DNA of 51,518 nt, counting the filler, from Dirinaria sp. TL-2023a (lineage: Eukaryota): assembly GCA_051941275.1 (NCBI GenBank). It is 3 parts of 3 records of this genome, joined end to end, with 100 filler letters (N's around TTAATTAATTAA, not from the genome) between each part and the next. Parts side by side here need not be neighbours in the genome. Positions count along the whole stretch, not along the records: positions 17,223 to 34,343 come from JAVEBF010000454.1; 2 more parts are not named here. One strand, 5' to 3'. Shown here piece after piece: positions 13,443-34,443 of this stretch; position 1 is the first letter of the stretch; each line of letters begins with the position of its first letter. Below the pieces are notes generated by a model. The model had not been told where the DNA came from, ran no database searches, and saw only the letters and a list, made by a program, of their open reading frames with translations. A program made the position numbers and the translations under genes.

Positions 13443-14772
13443 ATAGGGATGGATGTATTTATCTTATTTTTATGAGACATGCGAAACGTGATTGGCCTGG
13501 GGATCTGGGAGGCAAGGAGTTGCATCGTTCGCGATACAGAGATATTTCCGAGGTTTGGGGATAGAGGAAGGCAGCAATGCCTGCTAGAGGTTGGATGCGC
13601 GGGCATGTGCGGTGAATCGTAATTGCAGCTAACGTTCGGTTCAGATTCAACAATATTCTAGCGTGGAAGTTTCGGCAAGATGAACCTCTGTCAAGCCGGA
13701 TTTCGAAGGTTTAAAAACGTTTAATCTGATCATGGGTACCTTACCCAGAAATGTAGAAAATACACTCTGAAGCAACCGTCTTCTGTTCTCCAGATCTGCT
13801 CTACCGTCTTGCACGACACGATTGATACACATCCTCAATTTTCGACTAATGAACCACAGAACGTCGGTCTATACGGTATCAACGTGTTGATGCAGCTCTT
13901 GCATCCTTTCCTCCATCATCATGTCATGTGGATCGATTTCCGTATTCATACAGTGCCTCCACAGCATGAGGTTGACTTTCTAAATTTTTCCTGAAATGCT
14001 TGAGTTTGATTTTTTGTTTGCTGCAGTGTTATCTAGATTCGATCTCTCAAGTTTGAATCTCGTTTCGTTAGAATTTTTTGATTTGATTTCATTTTAGGAA
14101 TGTTGAGATCGCTGAGTAGATGAGTAGGGGTTGAATTTAAGAGAAACATTGGGAGTAAATATCATCGATGTTGTTTGGTTATCGTAGTGGTCAATCTTGT
14201 CAAGTATGGTAGGATGTAGATCCTTTTGAAGAGAAAGCTGCGAATGTCATCAATACATGAGCTCAAAAATTAGAGGAGAAATCTTATATATAAGATACAG
14301 GAAACTGTGAAAGTAGATCGAATTGCTGGCAAAGGTACTCGAGCTTTGAGGCCGCGAGAGTCAATAGATGAACTGAAGTGTTGGAGGAAAATTTCACATA
14401 GTGAGAGATTCGATACACAGATATCGTGAAAGTACTGCAGTATAAGATCTATTCGATGAAATTTGTAGTGCAAAATTTAGGAGCAATGTAAGGCTGGACT
14501 TCGAATCCACGATTTTGATACCTGAGCTTGTGGATCAGCGTCAAAGCGCAGGTGGTGTTTGAGTAGATCAGAAGTTTTACCTAGGGTAAAATTTTTCTCT
14601 ATCTACTTTACTGTACTTCACTACCTTGAGGAACGATGGATCCCTGGTGTGGCATTCGCGGAGTGAATCCCGATCGGAACTAGCCCCGAAGTCGGCTAAT
14701 ATTCGGTCTTTCCCTCTCGCCTTTTTGTTCAAGATTTATTCCATTGAGAACATGACCAATTGAAAATTGAAG

Positions 14773-17122
14773 ATGAGGCAGTCCGACCCAGAAGACGACT
14801 TTATCCTCACCATATCCGACAATGACGATGCACTTCCTGTGGAGATCGACGAACTCGACTCGGTGCCCGCAGTCTCTCCCAAGAAGTTACAGAACGGCAG
14901 TAAGCGTAAACGGAGCAATGAGCCTGCAACGAATGGCACAAACATGGCTGCGAAGAAGGGCAAGAAGAGGAAGACCGTAGTTGACGAGGATCTAGATCTC
15001 GAGCTGCGGGAAGACACTTGGACTGCTCGAGGTGAGGATGACGGAGCTATAGACTCGGATTTTGAATTTCAGATCGGAGATACAGGTGCAGGGATTACAG
15101 AAGACTTCGATGTATGGAACGTGGAGGCAGAAGACCAAGTGGCAAGCGCTAGGACGAGCAAAAAGGGTGTGGACATCGACGAGCTCATTGCGCGGCGATG
15201 GAAGGGCTCACGGGAAGAGGACTTGCGACAAGAGCATTCTGGAGGAAGCGTTGGCAGTTCGGAAGAGCCTGACCATGAAGCTATGGGGGACACATTGTCT
15301 GGTCAAGCAGACTTTTCCACATCTCCAGCTGATAGTGAAACTGAAGACGAAACATTGGCTGCGGACGGCTTTGGTATGGGCGCAGTGGGGGAAGACGAGG
15401 AGGATCAGGAGAAACCGCTCAATGGGGACGACCACGACTCGTCCCAGGCTTCAGCGGACGACTCAACAGCTGAACCAGTACCTCATCCAGACGATGAAGC
15501 CTCCTCTACTGCATCAGATTTCGATGAGGACGATGCTGAAGAACAAGCGCGCCGCAAAGCCTTCTTTGCGGAGGAAGAACATCCGAAGGCCATCCCCAAC
15601 GCTCTCACCGCGAACTCCTTCCAAAGCATGTCTCTCTCCCGTCCCATTCTCCGTGGCCTCGCTTCCTGCTCGTTCACCGCGCCAACACCTATCCAGTCCA
15701 AAACTATTCCCGTAGCGCTCCTAGGCCGAGACCTTGTAGGCGGTGCCGTTACTGGCTCTGGCAAAACCGCCGCTTTCATAATTCCAATCCTTGAACGTCT
15801 ACTTTATCGTCCCAAAAGGATACCCACGTCTCGTGTGACTATCTTGATGCCGACCCGAGAGCTAGCAGTGCAGTGCTTCAACGTTGCCAAAAAGCTAGCG
15901 AGCTACACGGACATCACCTTCTGTCAGCTAGTCGGCGGTCTCAGTCTGCGCGAGCAAGAAGCCGTGCTACGGACTCGTCCAGACATCATCATCGCAACAC
16001 CAGGAAGATTCATAGACCACATGCGCAATTCTCCATCTTTCACGCTTGAGACTCTCGAAATCCTTGTTCTGGATGAAGCAGACCGCATGCTTGAGGACGG
16101 CTTCGCAGATGAGCTGAACGAGATCCTCACCACGATCCCGCGCTCCCGCCAAACCATGCTTTTCTCAGCCACAATGACCACTCGTGTCGAGTCTTTGATC
16201 CGATTAGGTCTTAACCGGCCCGTCCGTCTCGTCATCAACCCTCAAAAAACAACCGTGGGCACCTTAACCCAAGAATTCGTCCGTCTCCGGCCTGGCCGGG
16301 AAGAAAAGCGCCTCGCGTACCTGGTCCATCTATGCCAAACCGTCTACACAAGCAGCACGATCATCTTCTTCCGCCAAAAAGCGCTGGCCCACAGGGTCCG
16401 CATCCTATTCAGCCTGCTCGACCTCAAAGCCGCCGAGCTGCACGGCAGCATGACCCAAGAACAGCGGCTGGCAGCCCTAACCTCCTTCCGCACCGGCGCC
16501 GCCAACTTCCTCCTCGCCACGGACGTCGCCAGCAGAGGCCTCGACATCCCCGCCGTGAGCACCGTGATCAACTACACCGCGCCGCAAAACGCAACCATCT
16601 ACCTGCACCGCGTGGGGCGGACCGCACGAGCCGGTCGCCCGGGCCGCGCATGCACTTTGGCCGCCGAACCAGACCGCAAAGTCGTCAAGGAAATCGTGAA
16701 AGCGGCGCGATCGCAGCACGCGAAAGTGGTCTCGCGCGCCATCGACGCCGTCGCCGTCGATACCGTGGATGCCCTCCACACACGCATCGCGGAGCACCTG
16801 GAAGCGGAGATCGACGCCATCCTCGGCGAGGAGAAAGAAGAGCGCGCGATGCAGAACGCGGAAATGCAGGTCCGCAAGGGCGAGAATCTGATGGTGCATG
16901 AGGCGGAGATCCACAGTCGCCCGAAGAGGACCTGGTTCGAGAGCGAGCGCGAGAAGAAAGTCGCGAAGATGAAGGGGTTGGAGGAGTTGAATGGTGCTGA
17001 GGGGAAGATGAAGAGGAAGATGAAGAAGGCAGCGGGGTGGAGGTTAAGTGGGAAGGATAAGAAGAGGTTGGATGATGGGCGCGAGAGGAGGGAGGGCAGG
17101 GTGTGGAAGAAGGGGAAGGGGG
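14773..17122 (+). CDS. DRS1: DEAD-box RNA helicase Drs1/DDX27 (60S biogenesis), 3' end lost in assembly gap
   Basis: [12 protein letters not shown]-terminus, Q-motif [46 protein letters not shown], and Drs1-type tail [21 protein letters not shown]. The ORF runs into the N-linker. Confidence 0.93.
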
Positions 17123-17222
17123 NNNNNNNNNNNNNNNNNNNNNNNNNNNNNNNNNNNNNNNNNNNNTTAATTAATTAANNNNNNNNNNNNNNNNNNNNNN
17201 NNNNNNNNNNNNNNNNNNNNNN
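17123..17222. other. Artificial contig-joining spacer (N44-TTAATTAATTAA-N44)
   Basis: Exactly 100 nt with a palindromic core that gives stops in all six frames. Identical to the spacer at 34344-34443. Confidence 0.98.
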
Positions 17223-18011: not shown

Positions 18012-21000
18012 CTAATTATTATTGCGAACCTCGTGCCAGAATAGGTCGAAATCCGGGACGATACCCTTCTTTAACTGCTCTTCGTTCCTTATGACCCAGT
18101 CGTCAATCGCGATCTGCACGTCGTCATCCGTCTTGATGGTCACGTAGTCACCATCTTCGTCCGTGTACCTCAGTCGGGCACGATCCTCTGCTACTTTTGC
18201 ATCGGATACGTGCTTCATCTTCGAGTCGATCCGGTCAATCAGAGACCGGTGCTTGATGATGATGGGTACGACGATGGTGATGTGGCCAGCTTTCTCCCCG
18301 TACGTGACTTTGATTTTCAGCTGGGTTGGATAGGGGACACCGCTGCTGCTGGCAGGAAGAGGAGCGGGCGTCGCCGAGGTTGTCATCATCTGCAGCGATG
18401 CATCTGCATAGCTGCCCTCCTGATACCGGCGAGGTTCCGTGTTCGGGATCGCTTGCAGGCGCTGCTGCATCTGCTGGTCGTAATTGTTGCTCGGATCTGG
18501 GTTAGGGCGCGGGGTTCTGTCCCTTGGGTGCATTGGTGAGTGGGCATTATTTCGCGTTGGTAGAGTTCCGTTGGTGGGAGAGCTGGTCTGACTGCGGGCG
18601 ATTGGGGCTCGCATTTGAGTCATGTGTGAGGGTATTGGGGGCACAGGGACATTATCTACCGGCGGCTGGAGCTGCCCATTGGCGTATCGTCGAGGCGCCC
18701 CCGCATTGCTCTGGATATCTGGAGTGCTAGCTGATCGTAGGCGATTCTGTTGTTGTGCGTTTGCTGGACCTGCCATGACTGGCAGTGAGGGTCTCAGTAC
18801 GGTGCGACCGTCCAGCGTGTACCCATTAATTGGTCTCGTCCCCTCTCTTGAAGGCACACGGGCCATGGCTGGGGCAGTCTTATGCTTACCATCTTCGTTC
18901 GATAATCGAGGTGTCATTTGACGGGGAAGAGCGAACATGCTTGCTTGGGAGCTTGATCGTGTGGACATAGGCGAATCACCGCCAGGAGAAAAATATGAAT
19001 TTCCTCCAAACTCTCCTGGGGAGCTTGCAGCGGGAGGGATATTGGTCTTCAGACTCAGTGGAGGCTGGTATGCCGCTGGCTCAGGCATGGGAAATCGGGG
19101 TGGTGCGCCGCGTACAGAGCCATTCAAAGTCGTTCCTGCCGATACCAAGCTGTTGCTTGAAGCCTGTCGAGTCATGCCGAAATTCGAAGATCCAGGTACA
19201 CCGGAAGACGTATTGCCATGACCCTCATCCGCATCATCATCGAGGTGTGGATTCTTGAGAGATGATAGCTGGTCCTTCATTGCCAAGAATTCCGTTTCCG
19301 ATGTGCCAGTCTGACCAGAGCTTCTTGCAGATTCACTCAGAGCCTTCTTCTGGATCTGGACTTGATCTCGCCATGTGTTCATGTCACCTTCATTCAAAAA
19401 CCGGATAACGAAGTTTTCAACACCCGGGTCACCCTTCCAGAAAATCTGAATCTTATAATCCTGCTTTTCTGCAAAGTTGTCAGCAAGCAAGTTGCAAGAT
19501 CGATTTTGGAATTGCCTTTACCTGACTTCGCGACCGTCAGTACGTCCGTGACATTCTGCATGAATATGCGTCCCTTGAGCTGCAAACGCGGTTTTCCTTT
19601 CTTGTCCACCAGCGACTTGTTGTTGCCTATCATCTTGTTCTTCGGCTTGTTCGGGTTGATCTCTTTACAGCAGAGCAGAATTCGCTCGAAGAGGTAGACT
19701 TTGTACTGTATACGCACAGGAGAAATTAACTTCAGTTCCTCACAAGTCTTGCTCTCAATTGATGTGATGGGAGTCGATCCCGTCGTCTGCAATGAGGACT
19801 TAGTCCTCTCTTGCACGGACATATTTGATGCCCTAGGCCATGGCCCAGACGCGGGATCCGAGGGCGACTGAAATGTATGGAATACGGTTTCTCTAGTAAG
19901 ACAACCATTGAAGTTGTACAAGTGCGCGTAAAGAGAAGGGTCCACAGGGGCATTTCGGGGCTTTTGGAGGACAGCCTTGACCTTACGACCTTGAGTCTTG
20001 ACCTTCTGACCGAAGTTAGAAAGCAGACCAGGCGACCCTACAAACTTGCTCTTCCGGCTAGGCGTTGGGGGTATTGAACCACCCTCACTACCTAAGCCTT
20101 CACGGGAGCTAGGCTGTGCCACGGGAATGTCGATGCTAGCGGGAGATGCGGCTGCGGTGGAAAATCCTAAAGGGGTTGACGGGCTTGCTGTCTTGCCTAG
20201 TTTATACCTCTGGAAGAGTCCGGCTTTCGAAGGCTTGCTACGAGGTGCGGGCGCCGTCTTTGTGGAAGGTCCAGTGAGGCCAGCGGTAGCCTGAGCAACT
20301 GCAGTGGGAGTCTCGGCAGTTGCCTCCCTTCGGGGCTGTTGATCGGCCTTGTCACCGTCTTCCTCTGGAACCTCTCTCAGTCCACTGACAAAGCGCCGCA
20401 GTCCGTAGGGGCTTGGCAGGCTTTGGTCTTGCAGTGTCGAGTCCGGTGTGGGAAGGCCAGTGCCCTCATAGTCGGCCTGGGTCGAACTATGCGGGAGTGG
20501 TCTCTGACGCATTTGCGTCGCGTTCATTGACCAAGGAGAAGACCCAGCCAGCTGACCACTGACTAGCCTGACGTGTTGACGGCCTTGCGGGCTGAGAGAA
20601 TCAAAGATTGTACAAACCTCGCGTTCTACTTCCTTGGCACCTTCACCCTTGACTACTGTGTAGTCACCGAAAAGTAAAAGCTCTCCGAAGTGTTCTATTT
20701 GGTGGTTTTTCCAATCCTCAACGCGGCTCTGGAGTTCGCATACCGCTGCGAGTCGCTGTTCCTTGTGAATCGCTTCGTTTGCCCGGAAAAGTATCGACGT
20801 GGCCGCTGCGCTCCCTTGGACGAGATCATACTTACGATCGTCATCTAGGCCGCCCTTCTTTCTCAGTTCCTACAAACAGGATTAGTATGACTTCCCTTGC
20901 GGTTTCTGAACCATACCTCGAGCAGCAGCGGATATTTCGACAAGCGCTGAAACGGTTTGACCAGGAATGACAGAAGAACAGATTGGGCCTCTACCATGCC

Positions 21001-22170
21001 ACGGACATTAGACGAGATTGGAGCAGCCTTGATCTTGTCCCACTCCCTTACGACCGCGTGATTGCAACGGACCTGGTTGGCGATAAACGGCTCATAGACA
21101 CGGAAGGAGTCCTTGTACTGGATGAAGAGCTGACCCCAGTTCTGTTGGATTTCCGGCAGGTGGTTTTGCTGCTCAATCCGAATCAAGAAGCGGCGTTGGA
21201 AATCCAGGAGTGCGTTCAGGTTCAAGAAGATGTCGTGCAACGCATCACCCGCGATCGCTCCGCACTCCTCAAGATCCTTCTTGAACTGCTGCAGGTCTTC
21301 AAGGTGCTGCACATAGTCCCTCTCCGTGGTCACGATTTCTCGGATGAGATTCTGCCGATAGGTCAACGTCTGGGGCACTTCTTTCTCTCCCTTTCTGGCT
21401 CGGCTCTCATTTAGCAATCCGCGGCTTTCAAGGATTCCAAGAACACGATTGACAACCTTGGTCACCTGCAACATGGATTAGCATCGCGAATTATCCGGAT
21501 GATGACTGCAAAGGACAAAAGCTCCGTGTTATGACCTTAAGAGAAGATGCGCGGATGATGCTAAGGATAACAAAAAGACACTTACTTTGACAAACCCAGT
21601 GGTGTCGCCCCCGTACAGATCCGTGATGAGAAAGCACTCGCTTGGCGGGAACTTCAGGTCGGTCAAGCAAGCTTGTAAAAATTTGAACGTCGCCGCTTTT
21701 CCTACTTTTGACTCTGCCATCCGAGAAGCGTCCACGTTCAGCGGTGCCTTGGGCAAAAGCGCGTTGTATATGGCCATGAGCGGGTATCCTCGTCTCAGGC
21801 AGTTCCACATCGATGTCACGGGATCTGTTGACTCCATTGCCTCGGCTTCTTCTTCTTCCATTTCTGCAATGAATATTTCGAAGTTGGGCACTCGTGCCAT
21901 CCGCGCTTTCAGATCCAGGCATATCTGGTACAGCGAGCTTGAGAGATCTCCGCGTCGATTCATGATGTTGTCGTTCGGCCGAGGAGCGTCGCTGGGAGGT
22001 GGAGAGGCCAATGCTTGAGAAGGAGGCTGTCCTTGCTGGCTTCCGTTGGGTGCCATCCTCGCCGATATTGGTCCGAACTGGCTGGGATGCGAAGCCACTC
22101 CCGAGTTTGCAAAAGCCGGAGGATGAGTCCCTCGAGGATGCAGTGAAGAGGTCATGTCGGTCGCTAGCAT
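18012..22170 (-). CDS. CDC24: Rho/Cdc42 guanine nucleotide exchange factor Cdc24/Scd1 (CH-DH-PH-PB1), ~1008 aa if fully spliced
   Basis: Exons 22170-21586, 21465-20917, 20869-20618, 19705-19522, 19468-18012. Motifs: SLYQICLDL, DPVTSMWNCLRRGYPL, LYGGDTTGFVKV, EIVTTERDYVQHLE, FLVKPFQRLSKYPLLL, RVEDWKNH..FGELLL, YLFERILLCCKE, LQLKGRIF, PB1 RLRYTDEDGDYVTI. Start could be 22170 or 22155. Confidence 0.92.
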
Positions 22171-23067: not shown

Positions 23068-26000
23068 ATGGATAAGTACAAGACGAATGCGCTGGACACG
23101 CCGTTCTTGTACCCGTCAATGAGACTCTCGAACATGGATATGTCCTACAAGATCGACGAGGGGTATTCGGAGGAGACCCGGAGCCAGGATGAACTGGACT
23201 CGGCTATGAGGCTGGAATCGAGTACAGACGAGATGTTGCCCAACCCGATGCGCCTGGCCATGGATAGTATCATGAGCTTAAGAGAGGAAGACAGGAGCGG
23301 TATGGCTTGAATCATGGGAGATCAACGGAGTCCTACATGCTAATGAACTACTCAGAATTTGTATACAACGTTCTTCAAACGCTTCGCACGTCTTCTATAG
23401 CCCGCATCGTGGAAAGACTGACGCCGCATTTGCATAAGGATCCGTTGACATACCTCCCGCCCGAAGTCACATCAGAGATTTTCTCGTACCTGAGCCCCTC
23501 GATGCTGCTCGAAGCTTCAAGAGTCTCCAGGCCATGGAGGGAACGGACGCTTGACAGCCGTCTCTGGAAACTCAAGTTTTTTTCAGAGGGGTGGGACTTG
23601 GAAGTGGACGAGCTTAGAGCTCTTGAACAAAGCCCGGACTCGCCACGAAAGGCTAGGAGTCGACGAGCCGAAACCTACGGCGAACAGCGCCGACAAAGAC
23701 GGCGGATGCACGGGGCCAGCGAAGCAGATACGACGACAGGCCAGAACGCACTAAGAGACCCATTATCTCTCCGGCATGAGGCTCAGCATTGGAGCGAGCA
23801 AAATGGTGCAGTTGAAGCCGACACTGAGCATGATTCGCCAGCCCTTGGATCATCCAAGGATGAGGAGATGTTGGACGTGGATCGTGGCATTATGACACCG
23901 CTTGCGCGTGAAGCACAAGATTTTCCACTTCTTGATGCTGAGCCATGGTCTACGAATGGCAAAAACCTTGTCCGGGGTACAGTGGTTCCGCCTGAGAGCA
24001 TTCAGGGGTTATCTCGCCCCGTCGACGCTCGACAGACCTCTGAGACCAGCATAGGCAACACACAGCAAACTCGTTTCAACATAGATCCTCCATTAATATC
24101 TTACCCCGTCCGAGGCCAGCCGCGACTGAATTATCAGCAGCTGTACAAACAAAGGCGGAAGTTAGAAGAGAATTGGAACACGTGCGCGTATAAGAGTTTC
24201 CAACTGCCTCACCGTGACCATCCCGAAGAAGCTCACCGCGAATGCGTGTATACGATCCAGTATATTGGAAGGTATCTGGTGAGCGGCAGTCGGGACCGAA
24301 CTTTGCGCAAATGGGACCTGGAGACTCAGCGACTGATTGGCAAGCCTTTGCAAGGGCACTCCGCGTCCGTGCTGTGCTTGCAGTTTGATAACAGCAAAGA
24401 CGAAGACGTGATTATTTCCGGAAGCAGTGACACAGATGTTATCATATGGCGCTATTCCACTGGCGAGCTCGTCGAAAGAATTACACAAGCGCATAGAGAA
24501 CCAGTATTAAACTTAAAGTTCGACCACCGATTTCTAGTTACATGTTCCAAAGACAAATCGATCAAGATATGGAACAGGCACAAAATTTCTCCAGGCCATA
24601 AAGATTACCCAAGTAAAGGCGTGAGAGGTGGCGGGAAATGTCCGGCGTATATTGTTGATTTAACAACTATCGGCTCGAACCCGTTCGACATACATAAATT
24701 TCTAACTGCTGATCAAAGAGCGCCTTTACGAGAGTATACCCACTTGATGACTTTGGACTCCCATTCAGCGGCTGTCAATGCCATTCACATTTACAAAGAC
24801 CAACTCGTTTCTGCCTCTGGCGATCGCTTTGTCAAGGTATGGAACATCCACACTGGCGAGTGCACCGCAACATGCAGAGGCCATCAGAAAGGAATTGCTT
24901 GTGTGCAATATGACGGGAAGCGTATCATAAGCGGTAGTAGCGATAATACGATCAGAATATATGACCCCGCAACCCAAGGCGAAGTTGCTTGTCTCCAGGG
25001 GCATTCGAGGTTGGTGCGTACGATACAATCCGCTTTTGAGGACCTCCCTGGCTCCCGAGACCAGCTTGAGAAAGAAGCACAGGATATCGACGGGCAGTTC
25101 TGGCTTGCACATGACGGGAGACTCCCCAACGACGATGGCTTCCGTAAGCGGAACCCTGGCTCAAAACAGCCGAAGGACATCACAGCAGTTGGACTCAAGC
25201 TTCCCCCTGGCGGGGGTGGGAGTAGCTGGGGACGCATCGTCTCTGGCTCTTACGACGAGACTATCATAATATGGAGAAAGGGATCCGATGGCCGCTGGGT
25301 CCCAGGCCATCGACTGCGGCAAGAAGAGGCTCTTCGCGCGGCTGGTGGCCCTCTAGCTTCTGGCTCCGAACCTCCACCGCCGCAAAATGCCGACATACCA
25401 TTTACAAACCGGAGGCAGCTGAGCGCCCAACGAACGAATGCTTCATACCAACCCCAGCGCACTGTAGATCCAGAGGCCCGACAAGGTATGGCTTTCCCAC
25501 AGGGACGATCTCAGCTCCCGCACGAGCCGCAGAATGGTCTGCAACCTCTGCAGCAGCCGATGAGCCATGAACCACAACAGGCAAACCAATCCAGGCCCAG
25601 ACCGAATCCCGCGACGCGTCTACTCACCACACAACAACCCTTTTCCCAATCACATAATCCGCACCAGTCCAGTAGCCATGCGCCCGTTCGCTCATCAATA
25701 TCCACCACCCAAGCAAACCAAGACCCTCGCAGCCAGCAGCAGCAGCAGCAGCAGCAGCATCTCCTCTCCGACGCGGGTCCCTCGTCTCGCCAATCCAACC
25801 TGGATCAAGCACGTCAGCCGCCAATCCTGGACACCCAACCAATCCCACCAAACAGTCTCCAACAACCACTCATCCCACAGCAACAACAACAACAATCATC
25901 AGCATCATCTCAGCATCCCCAGCCATCATCAGCCCATCCCCAGCATCCATTCCCTCAACAACAACACAACGCTCATCCTCCCCCACAAACCAGCACCTAC

Positions 26001-26240
26001 CAACCTCACCAACCAGCAGCAACAACGCAGAACCATCGCCCTGCCGCGCCCCCACAACCACCACCAGCAGCTGACCCAGCGGCCATGCAGTCGCAGCCGA
26101 ACGCTCGCGTGTTCAAGCTACAGTTCGATGCCCGCCGGATTATCTGCTGCAGCCAGGACCCAAAGATCGTAGGATGGGATTTCGCGAACGGGGACGAGCG
26201 GATCGTCGAGGCTAGTCGCTTCTTTAAAGCACCGCAGTAG
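23068..26240 (+). CDS. FWD1: F-box/WD40 protein, FWD1/beta-TrCP-like SCF substrate receptor, ~1038 aa
   Basis: Exons 23068-23299 and 23356-26240. KIDEGYSEETRS N-terminal motif, F-box DPLTYLPPEVTSEIFSYL, WD repeats (HRECVYTIQY, SGSRDRTL, HSASVLCLQFD, HSAAVNA, GHQKGIACVQYD, SGSYDETI, RVFKLQFDARRIICCSQD). The FWD1 orthology is an inference. Confidence 0.85.
25734..25757 (+). repeat. (CAG)8 coding microsatellite (polyQ)
   Basis: Eight perfect CAG units encoding Q8 in the F-box/WD40 low-complexity insert. Confidence 0.95.
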
Positions 26241-34343: not shown

Positions 34344-34443
34344 NNNNNNNNNNNNNNNNNNNNNNNNNNNNNNNNNNNNNNNNNNNNTTAATTAATTAAN
34401 NNNNNNNNNNNNNNNNNNNNNNNNNNNNNNNNNNNNNNNNNNN
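34344..34443. other. Artificial contig-joining spacer (N44-TTAATTAATTAA-N44)
   Basis: Same 100-nt design as 17123-17222. Confidence 0.98.

Follow-up and report, generated by a model that had tools for sequence, protein, structure and literature searches.

The stretch analysed here (the window) is 51,518 nucleotides (nt) of the genome assembly GCA_051941275.1 of Dirinaria sp. TL-2023a, filler included, and its minus strand carries CDC24, which encodes the exchange factor that activates Cdc42 and determines where polarised growth takes place in fungi. Frame analysis and an RNA joint identify in this gene a 912-nt segment (19706..20617, minus strand) that is spliced out as a real phase-0 intron and is also an open, in-frame run of 304 codons, in the manner of an exitron. 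The intron site is shared by CDC24 genes across Pezizomycotina and, as judged by sequence comparison, has been translatable for a long time. We lean towards the reading that the segment is a genuine spliceosomal intron that was kept translatable, and that its retention gives a second, longer isoform of Cdc24; this retained form would be translated and might have a distinct function.

The 912-nt segment and its removal from CDC24 RNA

The CDC24 coding region (18012..22170, minus strand), which encodes CH, DH, PH and PB1 domains, was modelled with five exons (22170-21586, 21465-20917, 20869-20618, 19705-19522 and 19468-18012). With the segment removed, these give a coding sequence (CDS) of 3027 nt, or 1008 amino acids (aa), that reads ...KEVERE|YKVYLFERILLCCKE at the joint; with the segment kept, the CDS has 3939 nt (1312 aa), and neither version contains an internal stop. 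Splicing, which the RNA shows, yields the canonical 1008-aa Cdc24, and the unspliced messenger RNA (mRNA) would encode a 1312-aa Cdc24 because the intron has a length divisible by three, contains no stop and continues the frame of the exons on either side. Exon 3 (20618..20869) comprises the end of the DH region and PH strand 1 and terminates in ...KEVERE, and exon 4 (19522..19705) comprises PH strands 2-4 and begins with YKVYLFERILLCCKE. P0001, an NCBI protein of 1281 aa from a metagenome-assembled genome (MAG) labelled Dirinaria sp. TL-2023a, matches the window at 100% and keeps the segment as coding. Its Pfam domains follow the order of Cdc24/Scd1: CDC24 (3.6e-33), RhoGEF (1.3e-14), PH_10 (5.1e-29) and PB1 (3e-06). 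The PH_10 match covers only profile positions 23-120, from the Tyr directly after the segment, whereas in P0065 positions 2-121 are matched in one piece; by comparison with P0065, positions 1-22 fall in exon 3. Since PH_10 is split at profile position 22/23, the segment lies between PH strands 1 and 2. We also observed that P0001 reads ...NVRGM|ELRKK, omitting 26 DH residues (VEAQSV...KYPLLLE; window 20917-20994, minus strand) that are present in homologues. Its intron 2 donor is probably misplaced, and our own model uses a 47-nt intron (20916-20870).

The segment begins with GTTTGT, ends with TACAG and has 0 stops in the CDC24 frame; the remaining five frames contain 9, 19, 11, 11 and 18. Its base composition predicts 11.2 stops, and the probability of finding none, P(0), is 1.1e-5. 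Of 20000 first-order Markov simulations, a single one lacked stops, a figure in which the 1/3 chance of a length divisible by three is not yet counted. The G+C content is 0.553 (exons, 0.49-0.55; the three ordinary introns, 0.415-0.433), and the codon-usage score per codon, trained on 12 other long open reading frames (ORFs) of the window, is +0.06 in the CDC24 frame and -0.20 to -0.40 in the other frames (CDC24 exons, +0.10 to +0.21). The segment is 8-19 times as long as the other introns of the gene, which are intron 1 (21466..21585, minus strand; 120 nt, GTAAGT...CAG, with CTAAT at -16), intron 2 (20870..20916, minus strand; 47 nt, GTATGG...TAG, placed by homology) and intron 4 (19469..19521, minus strand; 53 nt, GTAAAG...CAG). 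The first-pass annotation had described 304 stop-free codons at 19706..20617, a length far beyond that of the other introns, a canonical PH reading KEVERE|YKVYLFERILLCCKE that needs removal of the segment, and 30 initial codons that lead to an in-frame ATG at 20527. Our analysis agreed on each of these points (P(0) about 1e-5; 8-19 times the 120, 47 and 53 nt; the 1008-aa model), the ATG (20525..20527, minus strand) being codon 31, at a position that is not conserved.

The fungal donor consensus is GTRNGT, and judged against it the 5' splice site of the segment (GTTTGT, 20612..20617, minus strand; Val-Cys codons, with a pyrimidine at +3) is weaker than the other donors of the gene (GTAAGT, GTATGG and GTAAAG). 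The 3' splice region (19706..19741, minus strand) reads EELKLISPVRIQ in frame; it contains CTGAA at -30 and TTAAT at -24 as candidate branch points and the acceptor CAG (Gln). A CTRAY branch motif is absent from the segment and stands at -15/-16 in introns 1, 2 and 4, the only three introns available for comparison. Relative to these three, the segment displays the exitron traits of greater length, higher G+C content and weaker splice signals. A weak 5' splice site together with a distant branch point might result in incomplete or regulated removal.

The RNA consisted of four transcriptomic runs (X1-X4) from one lichen sample, used as assembled contigs with contig word depths and not as reads. 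The contigs are 96-98% identical to the window and therefore stem from a close relative. X1, X2 and X3 each contain a joint (19705->20618) from which precisely 912 nt are missing, bounded by GT..AG on the minus strand; contig X3 record 18 spans it, with 184 nt on the exon 4 side and 850 nt on the upstream side. Depth was 10.8-19.6 at this joint and 1.3-10.9 inside the segment. The RNA check for spliced transcripts that had been proposed in the first-pass annotation thus returned splicing at the exact borders, in three of the four runs of the one sample. Joints were also seen for intron 1 (X2 and X3) and intron 4 (X1 and X3). Unspliced contigs span the whole segment and both borders (X4 records 27 and 28). 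We rejected them as evidence of a retained isoform, for this pattern is more pronounced at introns 1 and 4, and intron 2 appears only unspliced; given this unspliced background at ordinary introns, the library is rich in pre-mRNA or DNA. Intron 2 (20870-20916) was unspliced even on a contig from which the 912 nt had been removed, despite its good GTATGG...ACTAAT...TAG signals, and its retention would stop the frame after 21 codons. A separate joint, seen in X4 only (depth 3.9, side 29), skips 59 nt at 19271-19329; its GT..AG ends are those of the plus strand, which makes it antisense to CDC24 exon 5, and it may represent antisense spliced RNA or foreign sequence.

The intron site in Pezizomycotina and the constraint on its frame

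A scan of metagenome contigs with a CDC24 protein alignment, covering the best 80 of 114 relatives, gave 46 sequence clusters and, with the window, 47 lineages, the class names of loci being taken from protein similarity to named database entries. A phase-0 intron was found at the same point (after ..ERE/..QKE and before Y-x-x-YLF) in 46 of the 47 lineages; L074 has no intron at the site or anywhere and looks like a transcript. Introns of at least 300 nt occur in 19 lineages and are open, that is, divisible by three and stop-free, in 15 of them, although the clusters are not a phylogeny and the 15 are not independent events. Loci were ranked by similarity to an insert-containing query and one pattern requires Gln before Tyr, and the open share in lichen-type loci may be inflated. 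None of the four lineages with introns of 246-260 nt is open, and five of the 23 with introns below 200 nt are, all of them of 54-81 nt; the short introns at the site look ordinary. The open long introns measure 912 nt in the window, 909 in the L001 group, 753/762 in the L005 group, 726 in L017, 897 in the L018 group, 600 in the Geoglossum-like L048, 654 in the L042 group and 300-342 in eight further lineages. They belong to lichen-formers, to the Geoglossum-like lineage and to Helotiales; a second protein search assigned the group that reads Y-T-I-Y-L-F to Leotiomycetes, mostly Helotiales. The long introns that are not open are those of L046 (a multiple of three with one stop), L021 (451 nt), the L022 group (400 nt) and L032 (784 nt).

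The splice signals of the open introns are also codons. Among 226 database proteins that we attempted to parse at the site, 109 have no insert, 81 have an insert of any length and 36 could not be parsed. By our own count from these 226, 61 predicted proteins carry at least 100 residues there; Val (GT) is the first inserted residue in all but two partial models of this set, and Gln (CAG) the last in all. Most long open lineages have the branch motif GCTRAC (Ala-Asn or Ala-Asp) at -38, in place of which the window and L001 have TTAAT/TTAAC at -24. Their donors are mostly off-consensus (GTTTGT, GTTCGT, GTCGGT, GTTGGT and GTACGA), and broken-frame lineages carry GTAAGT or GTGAGT donors and TAG acceptors (L021, L022 and L027). 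The splice signals are doubly used, GT as Val, GCTRAC as Ala-Asn/Asp and CAG as Gln, and the sequence is dual-coded. A locus search with the insert alone gave 226 pattern matches in metagenome contigs, none of which was confirmed.

The same duality accounts for an annotation conflict: CDC24 models of close relatives, among lichen-formers and Helotiales, have either about 1000 aa or about 1200-1350 aa, because predictors keep or remove the segment. Xanthoria parietina, Lasallia pustulata and Bacidia gigantensis are among the species with models of about 1000 aa. The ORF-type protein P0009, with flanks nearly identical to Lasallia pustulata Cdc24, has an open insert of 398 residues, and the NCBI model P0020 of Lasallia (1035 aa) has the insert spliced out, the same conflict as in the window. 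Shorter introns are read through as well. P0139, P0142-P0145, P0147 and P0154, from Botrytis and relatives, translate a 57-nt, stop-free intron at the site, divisible by three (+19 residues). In the relative P0002 the counterpart of the 53-nt intron 4, which is there a multiple of three and open, is read through in frame (18 residues), a small example of ORF-type predictions that swallow short introns.

Several comparisons indicate that the segment is under selection to stay translatable, as far as sequence can tell. For each of six long inserts of lichen or Geoglossum type, P(0) is 2e-6 to 4e-5. In nucleotide-level alignments of the pairs that could be aligned, all gaps are multiples of three: seven of seven in L005/L017, a single gap of 9 nt in L005/L007 and, among Helotiales, 6+3 in L059/L049, 6+3 in L059/L073 and 6+6+6 in L049/L073. 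The closest pair, L001/L003 (98% identical), has 17 differences, distributed over codon positions as 2, 3 and 12, about 10 of them synonymous; its ratio of nonsynonymous to synonymous differences (pN/pS) is 0.25 (binomial p 0.002), with pS at 0.044 as against 0.035 in exon 3. A frame-blind alignment of the window and L001 gave identities of 0.57/0.63/0.43 by codon position. The corresponding substitution ratio (dN/dS) of the insert is 0.25 for the window and L001, 0.58 for L005/L017 and 0.57-0.63 for three Helotiales pairs, and that of the flanking exons 0.01-0.15. Across seven sequences, 44 of 378 aligned columns have the same residue in at least five, and many conserved columns are encoded by differing codons, with switches between CGN and AGR (Arg) and between TCN and AGC (Ser) among them. 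In a control with frame-shifted translations, the true frame was clear for the window/L001 (0.405 vs 0.26-0.36), window/L005 and L001/L005 pairs, and was not separated for window/L018, window/L048, L005/L017 and L005/L018. The intron of L032 (L032:4252-5036), 784 nt long and not a multiple of three, has 6-7 stops per frame and relic motifs: one frame retains the start motif, another TPSRKSK and QFNG, and the remaining one the end motif; it may be a decayed ORF or an assembly error. Coding constraint, as inferred in the first-pass annotation, was therefore borne out by indels that are multiples of three, a dN/dS of 0.25-0.63 and an excess of synonymous changes, and the two comparative checks proposed there pointed the same way, with open introns in 15 of 19 lineages and dN/dS below 1 in the pairs compared.

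The encoded loop and the alternatives to a second isoform

In the long form, the PH domain would be split between strands 1 and 2 by a 304-aa loop which, from its sequence and AlphaFold models, is predicted to be mostly disordered and rich in Ser, Pro, Thr and Lys, with a conserved TPSR(K/R) motif and, at its C-terminal end, a short helix. The residues S/P/T/K/R/G/Q make up 59% of the insert; its 304 residues contain 13 Ser/Thr-Pro sites, compared with 10 in the other 977. Proline-directed kinases have the consensus [ST]-P-x-[KR], of which two sites are in the insert and none elsewhere. The alignment revealed an N-terminal motif, VCTIFDSLSP (20588..20617, minus strand; consensus V-x-x-I-F-D-x-L-x-P), and, as the most conserved internal motif, PPTPSRKSK (20045..20071, minus strand), which has the form [ST]-P-x-[KR] of a proline-directed Ser/Thr site and in which P267 and P270 are nearly invariant. 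The TPSR site recurs in P0001-P0005, P0009 and the Geoglossum protein P0062, and the F-N-G block LYNFNGCL (19898..19921, minus strand) is also present in Geoglossum-like and Helotiales inserts. AlphaFold models of P0002, a 78%-identical relative (86-row alignment), and of P0123 from Helotiales (66 rows) have a predicted local distance difference test score (pLDDT) of about 85-90 in the PH core and below 50 in the insert, apart from weak, short helices where the insert begins and immediately ahead of strand 2. The PH core is predicted to fold around a mostly disordered insert, provided that the long form is made.

The insert profile of Lecanoromycetes and that of Teloschistaceae match each other (E 2.9e-11). 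Deep homology of the Lecanoromycete and Helotiales inserts was considered and set aside as weak (E 0.007 vs 0.29 and 0.58 in reversed controls), and the Teloschistaceae profiles gave no match to the Helotiales or Geoglossum profiles. A Pfam search of the insert found no family, and the best score in the ESM Atlas was 0.86, with low recognition and nothing usable. A representative search gave four matches at E<=0.001, of 325-452 aa, and no other family; by length and match position these look like CDC24 ORF pieces of relatives.

A loop in the PH domain could alter the binding of membranes or partners, or the way in which kinases control this exchange factor of Cdc42. If a second isoform with such a large regulatory loop exists, it would subject hyphal growth to a new point of control and be a rare, clear filamentous-fungal case in which one sequence has been intron and coding sequence alike through a long stretch of evolution, with the lineages of decayed frame as natural "knock-outs". 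More tentatively, and with less confidence than we give to the second isoform itself, the intron could be an ancient dual-coded one that predates the split of Lecanoromycetes, Geoglossomycetes and Leotiomycetes and switches Cdc24 between compact and kinase-targeted split-PH forms. Regulated retention would then tune Cdc42 in development, stress or symbiosis, and lineages without the ORF would have converted it to a plain, strongly signalled intron.

A number of observations weigh against a functional long isoform. Splicing is the only state directly seen in RNA, in contigs from one sample. At introns 1 and 4, unspliced contigs (depth 11.6-17.4) exceed the spliced joints (5.8-9.2), and for intron 2 no spliced joint was listed, all three RNA contigs that cover it being unspliced. 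The first-pass annotation had proposed that retention would insert an S/P/K-rich disordered segment into the PH domain: the 1312-aa reading is open and the loop is predicted to be disordered, but unspliced contigs are no stronger here than at introns 1 and 4. Among the listed matches, all six full-domain proteins found only in Logan (P0024, P0034, P0035, P0049, P0082 and P0120) have 954-1023 aa, and hence the length expected without the long insert. P0034 and P0035 (Letharia-like) and P0136 (from the species of locus L059) are spliced at the segment site; their short contigs (3.5-5.9 kb in the Logan set), with all introns removed, suggest that they derive from transcripts. P0122 and P0130, which have RhoGEF and PH with the insert, were rejected as retained-intron mRNAs, since intron 2 is also read through in frame and they are genomic ORFs. 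The ORF has been lost in L021, L022, L027, L032 and L046, so the long form is dispensable in those lineages. Homology of the insert between classes is weak (E 1e-4 to 7e-3; reversed controls, 0.015-0.63), and the constraint is loose, with a dN/dS of about 0.6 in L005/L017 and the Helotiales pairs and no third-position effect in L005/L017, although such looseness agrees with a disordered region where what counts is the frame, the composition and a small number of motifs. The peptide at the 3' end overlaps the branch point and acceptor and may be conserved as RNA.

The main rival, which we regard as rather unlikely, shares its mechanism with the second-isoform reading and grants the long form no separate role: a weakly signalled intron is often left in, and its readable frame acts as a fail-safe that yields a working full-length Cdc24 and avoids a truncated CH-DH fragment or a target of nonsense-mediated decay. 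The mostly disordered prediction for the insert suits it, as does the L005/L017 pair, where dN/dS is near 0.6 without a codon-position effect and yet seven of seven indels are multiples of three. So does the repeated loss of the ORF, after which the introns carry GTAAGT/GTGAGT donors and TAG acceptors (L021, L022 and L027). Against it stand the V-x-x-IFD-x-L-x-P, P-x-TPSR and FNG motifs kept through synonymous codon changes, the pN/pS of 0.25 in the closest pair and the matching Lecanoromycete and Teloschistaceae profiles (E 2.9e-11), and intron shrinkage, the path taken by many lineages, would be simpler. At the other extreme, the segment could be an ordinary coding exon, as in P0001 (1281 aa), and the RNA splice a minor event of exitron type. 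This we judge improbable. Dozens of other lichen models besides P0001 keep the segment as coding, and its G+C content and codon usage are exon-like, but the depth of RNA contigs is higher at the joint than inside the segment, PH_10 is complete in spliced homologues and starts only at position 23 in P0001, and P0034, P0035 and P0136, taken as transcript-derived, are all spliced at the site. Moreover, the "MAG:" labels suggest that the annotations in question are ab initio models made on metagenome-assembled genomes.

A constitutive intron that is never translated, its frame open by chance or through some non-translational constraint, seems very improbable to us. It agrees with splicing as the sole state directly seen and with a 3'-end motif that overlaps splice signals, but chance would have to supply about 1e-5 per lineage, times 1/3 for the length, in a state that recurs in 15 lineages with indels only in multiples of three and an excess of synonymous changes. 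We know of no non-translational process that would require the frame to be free of stops and to run on from one exon into the other. We give least credence to an internal promoter with initiation at the ATG at 20527, proposed in the first-pass annotation, from which an N-terminally truncated protein (part of PH plus PB1) would compete for Bem1. The ATG is present and in frame, and a Met occupies the matching position in P0002, the closest relative; in six other lineages, however, the first Met stands at positions 3, 15, 20, 45, 48 and 50, and we rejected the internal ATG on conservation. In addition, the 30 upstream codons are also open and hold the best-conserved N-terminal motif, and a total length divisible by three matters only if reading begins in exon 3. 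The whole segment is kept in frame with exon 3 from its first codon, for which an internal start gives no need; contigs cannot reveal transcript starts.

Around CDC24, the window contains two long ORFs whose translations we judged by eye: 23268-26240 (plus strand) resembles an F-box/WD40 protein with a long Gln/Pro-rich tail, and 14764-17178 (plus strand) a DEAD-box helicase. Four runs of 44 N form two pairs, 12 nt apart (17123-17166 and 17179-17222; 34344-34387 and 34400-34443), the first of which lies at the 3' end of the helicase-like ORF.

Relation to known translatable introns

The CDC24 segment is an exitron-like, PTC7-type translatable intron. Full-text literature searches on exitrons, intron retention and Cdc24 splicing, which do not cover subscription journals, brought up no account of a CDC24 intron of this kind. 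With respect to the encoded domain, the closest parallel is found in the split PH domains of PLC-gamma and syntrophin: the PH fold tolerates a large loop insertion and reassembles, and the known cases carry folded domains in other loops. The AlphaFold models likewise keep the PH core around the insert, but the CDC24 insert is predicted to be disordered, lies between strands 1 and 2 and would be optional through splicing.

The cDNA of Botrytis cinerea BcCdc24 (1042 aa; PMC4010548) has five introns of 253, 47, 57, 55 and 87 bp. The order of CH, DH, PH and PB1 and the intron site are the same as in the CDC24 of the window, whereas the intron at the site is short; the part of the article that we consulted mentions neither a long insert nor a second isoform.

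The definition of exitrons comes from Arabidopsis and human, where they lie within annotated exons and the retained form is the major mRNA, according to the portion of the source available to us (Marquez et al. 2015, PMC4484396). Similarly, the CDC24 segment has splice sites and is spliced in RNA (three of four runs, one sample), is a multiple of three and stop-free when kept, and its splicing deletes an internal piece of protein. It is longer and richer in G+C than ordinary introns and has weaker splice signals, with three introns for comparison, and it keeps in frame a region predicted to be disordered with putative modification sites. As for a position within an annotated coding exon, the segment is annotated as coding in P0001, and its unspliced contigs are no more abundant than at ordinary introns. 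The CDC24 case differs in that the canonical domain results from the spliced form, which seems to be no less abundant than the retained one, and in that the intron position is old and widely shared.

The PTC7 intron of Saccharomycotina (PMC7491326), in the sections of that report accessible to us, is a short one; the transmembrane helix that it adds close to the N-terminus alters localisation, and translation and function of the long form were shown. The CDC24 introns, in contrast, are of 300-900 nt and would encode a loop modelled as disordered in the PH domain, the long form being known here from sequence. Both mRNAs of PTC7 encode proteins, and its intron is a multiple of three and stop-free across species. 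On that same partial text, the two systems agree in being fungal introns whose length and frame are kept in this way across species, and in both, lineages that lose the arrangement acquire stops.

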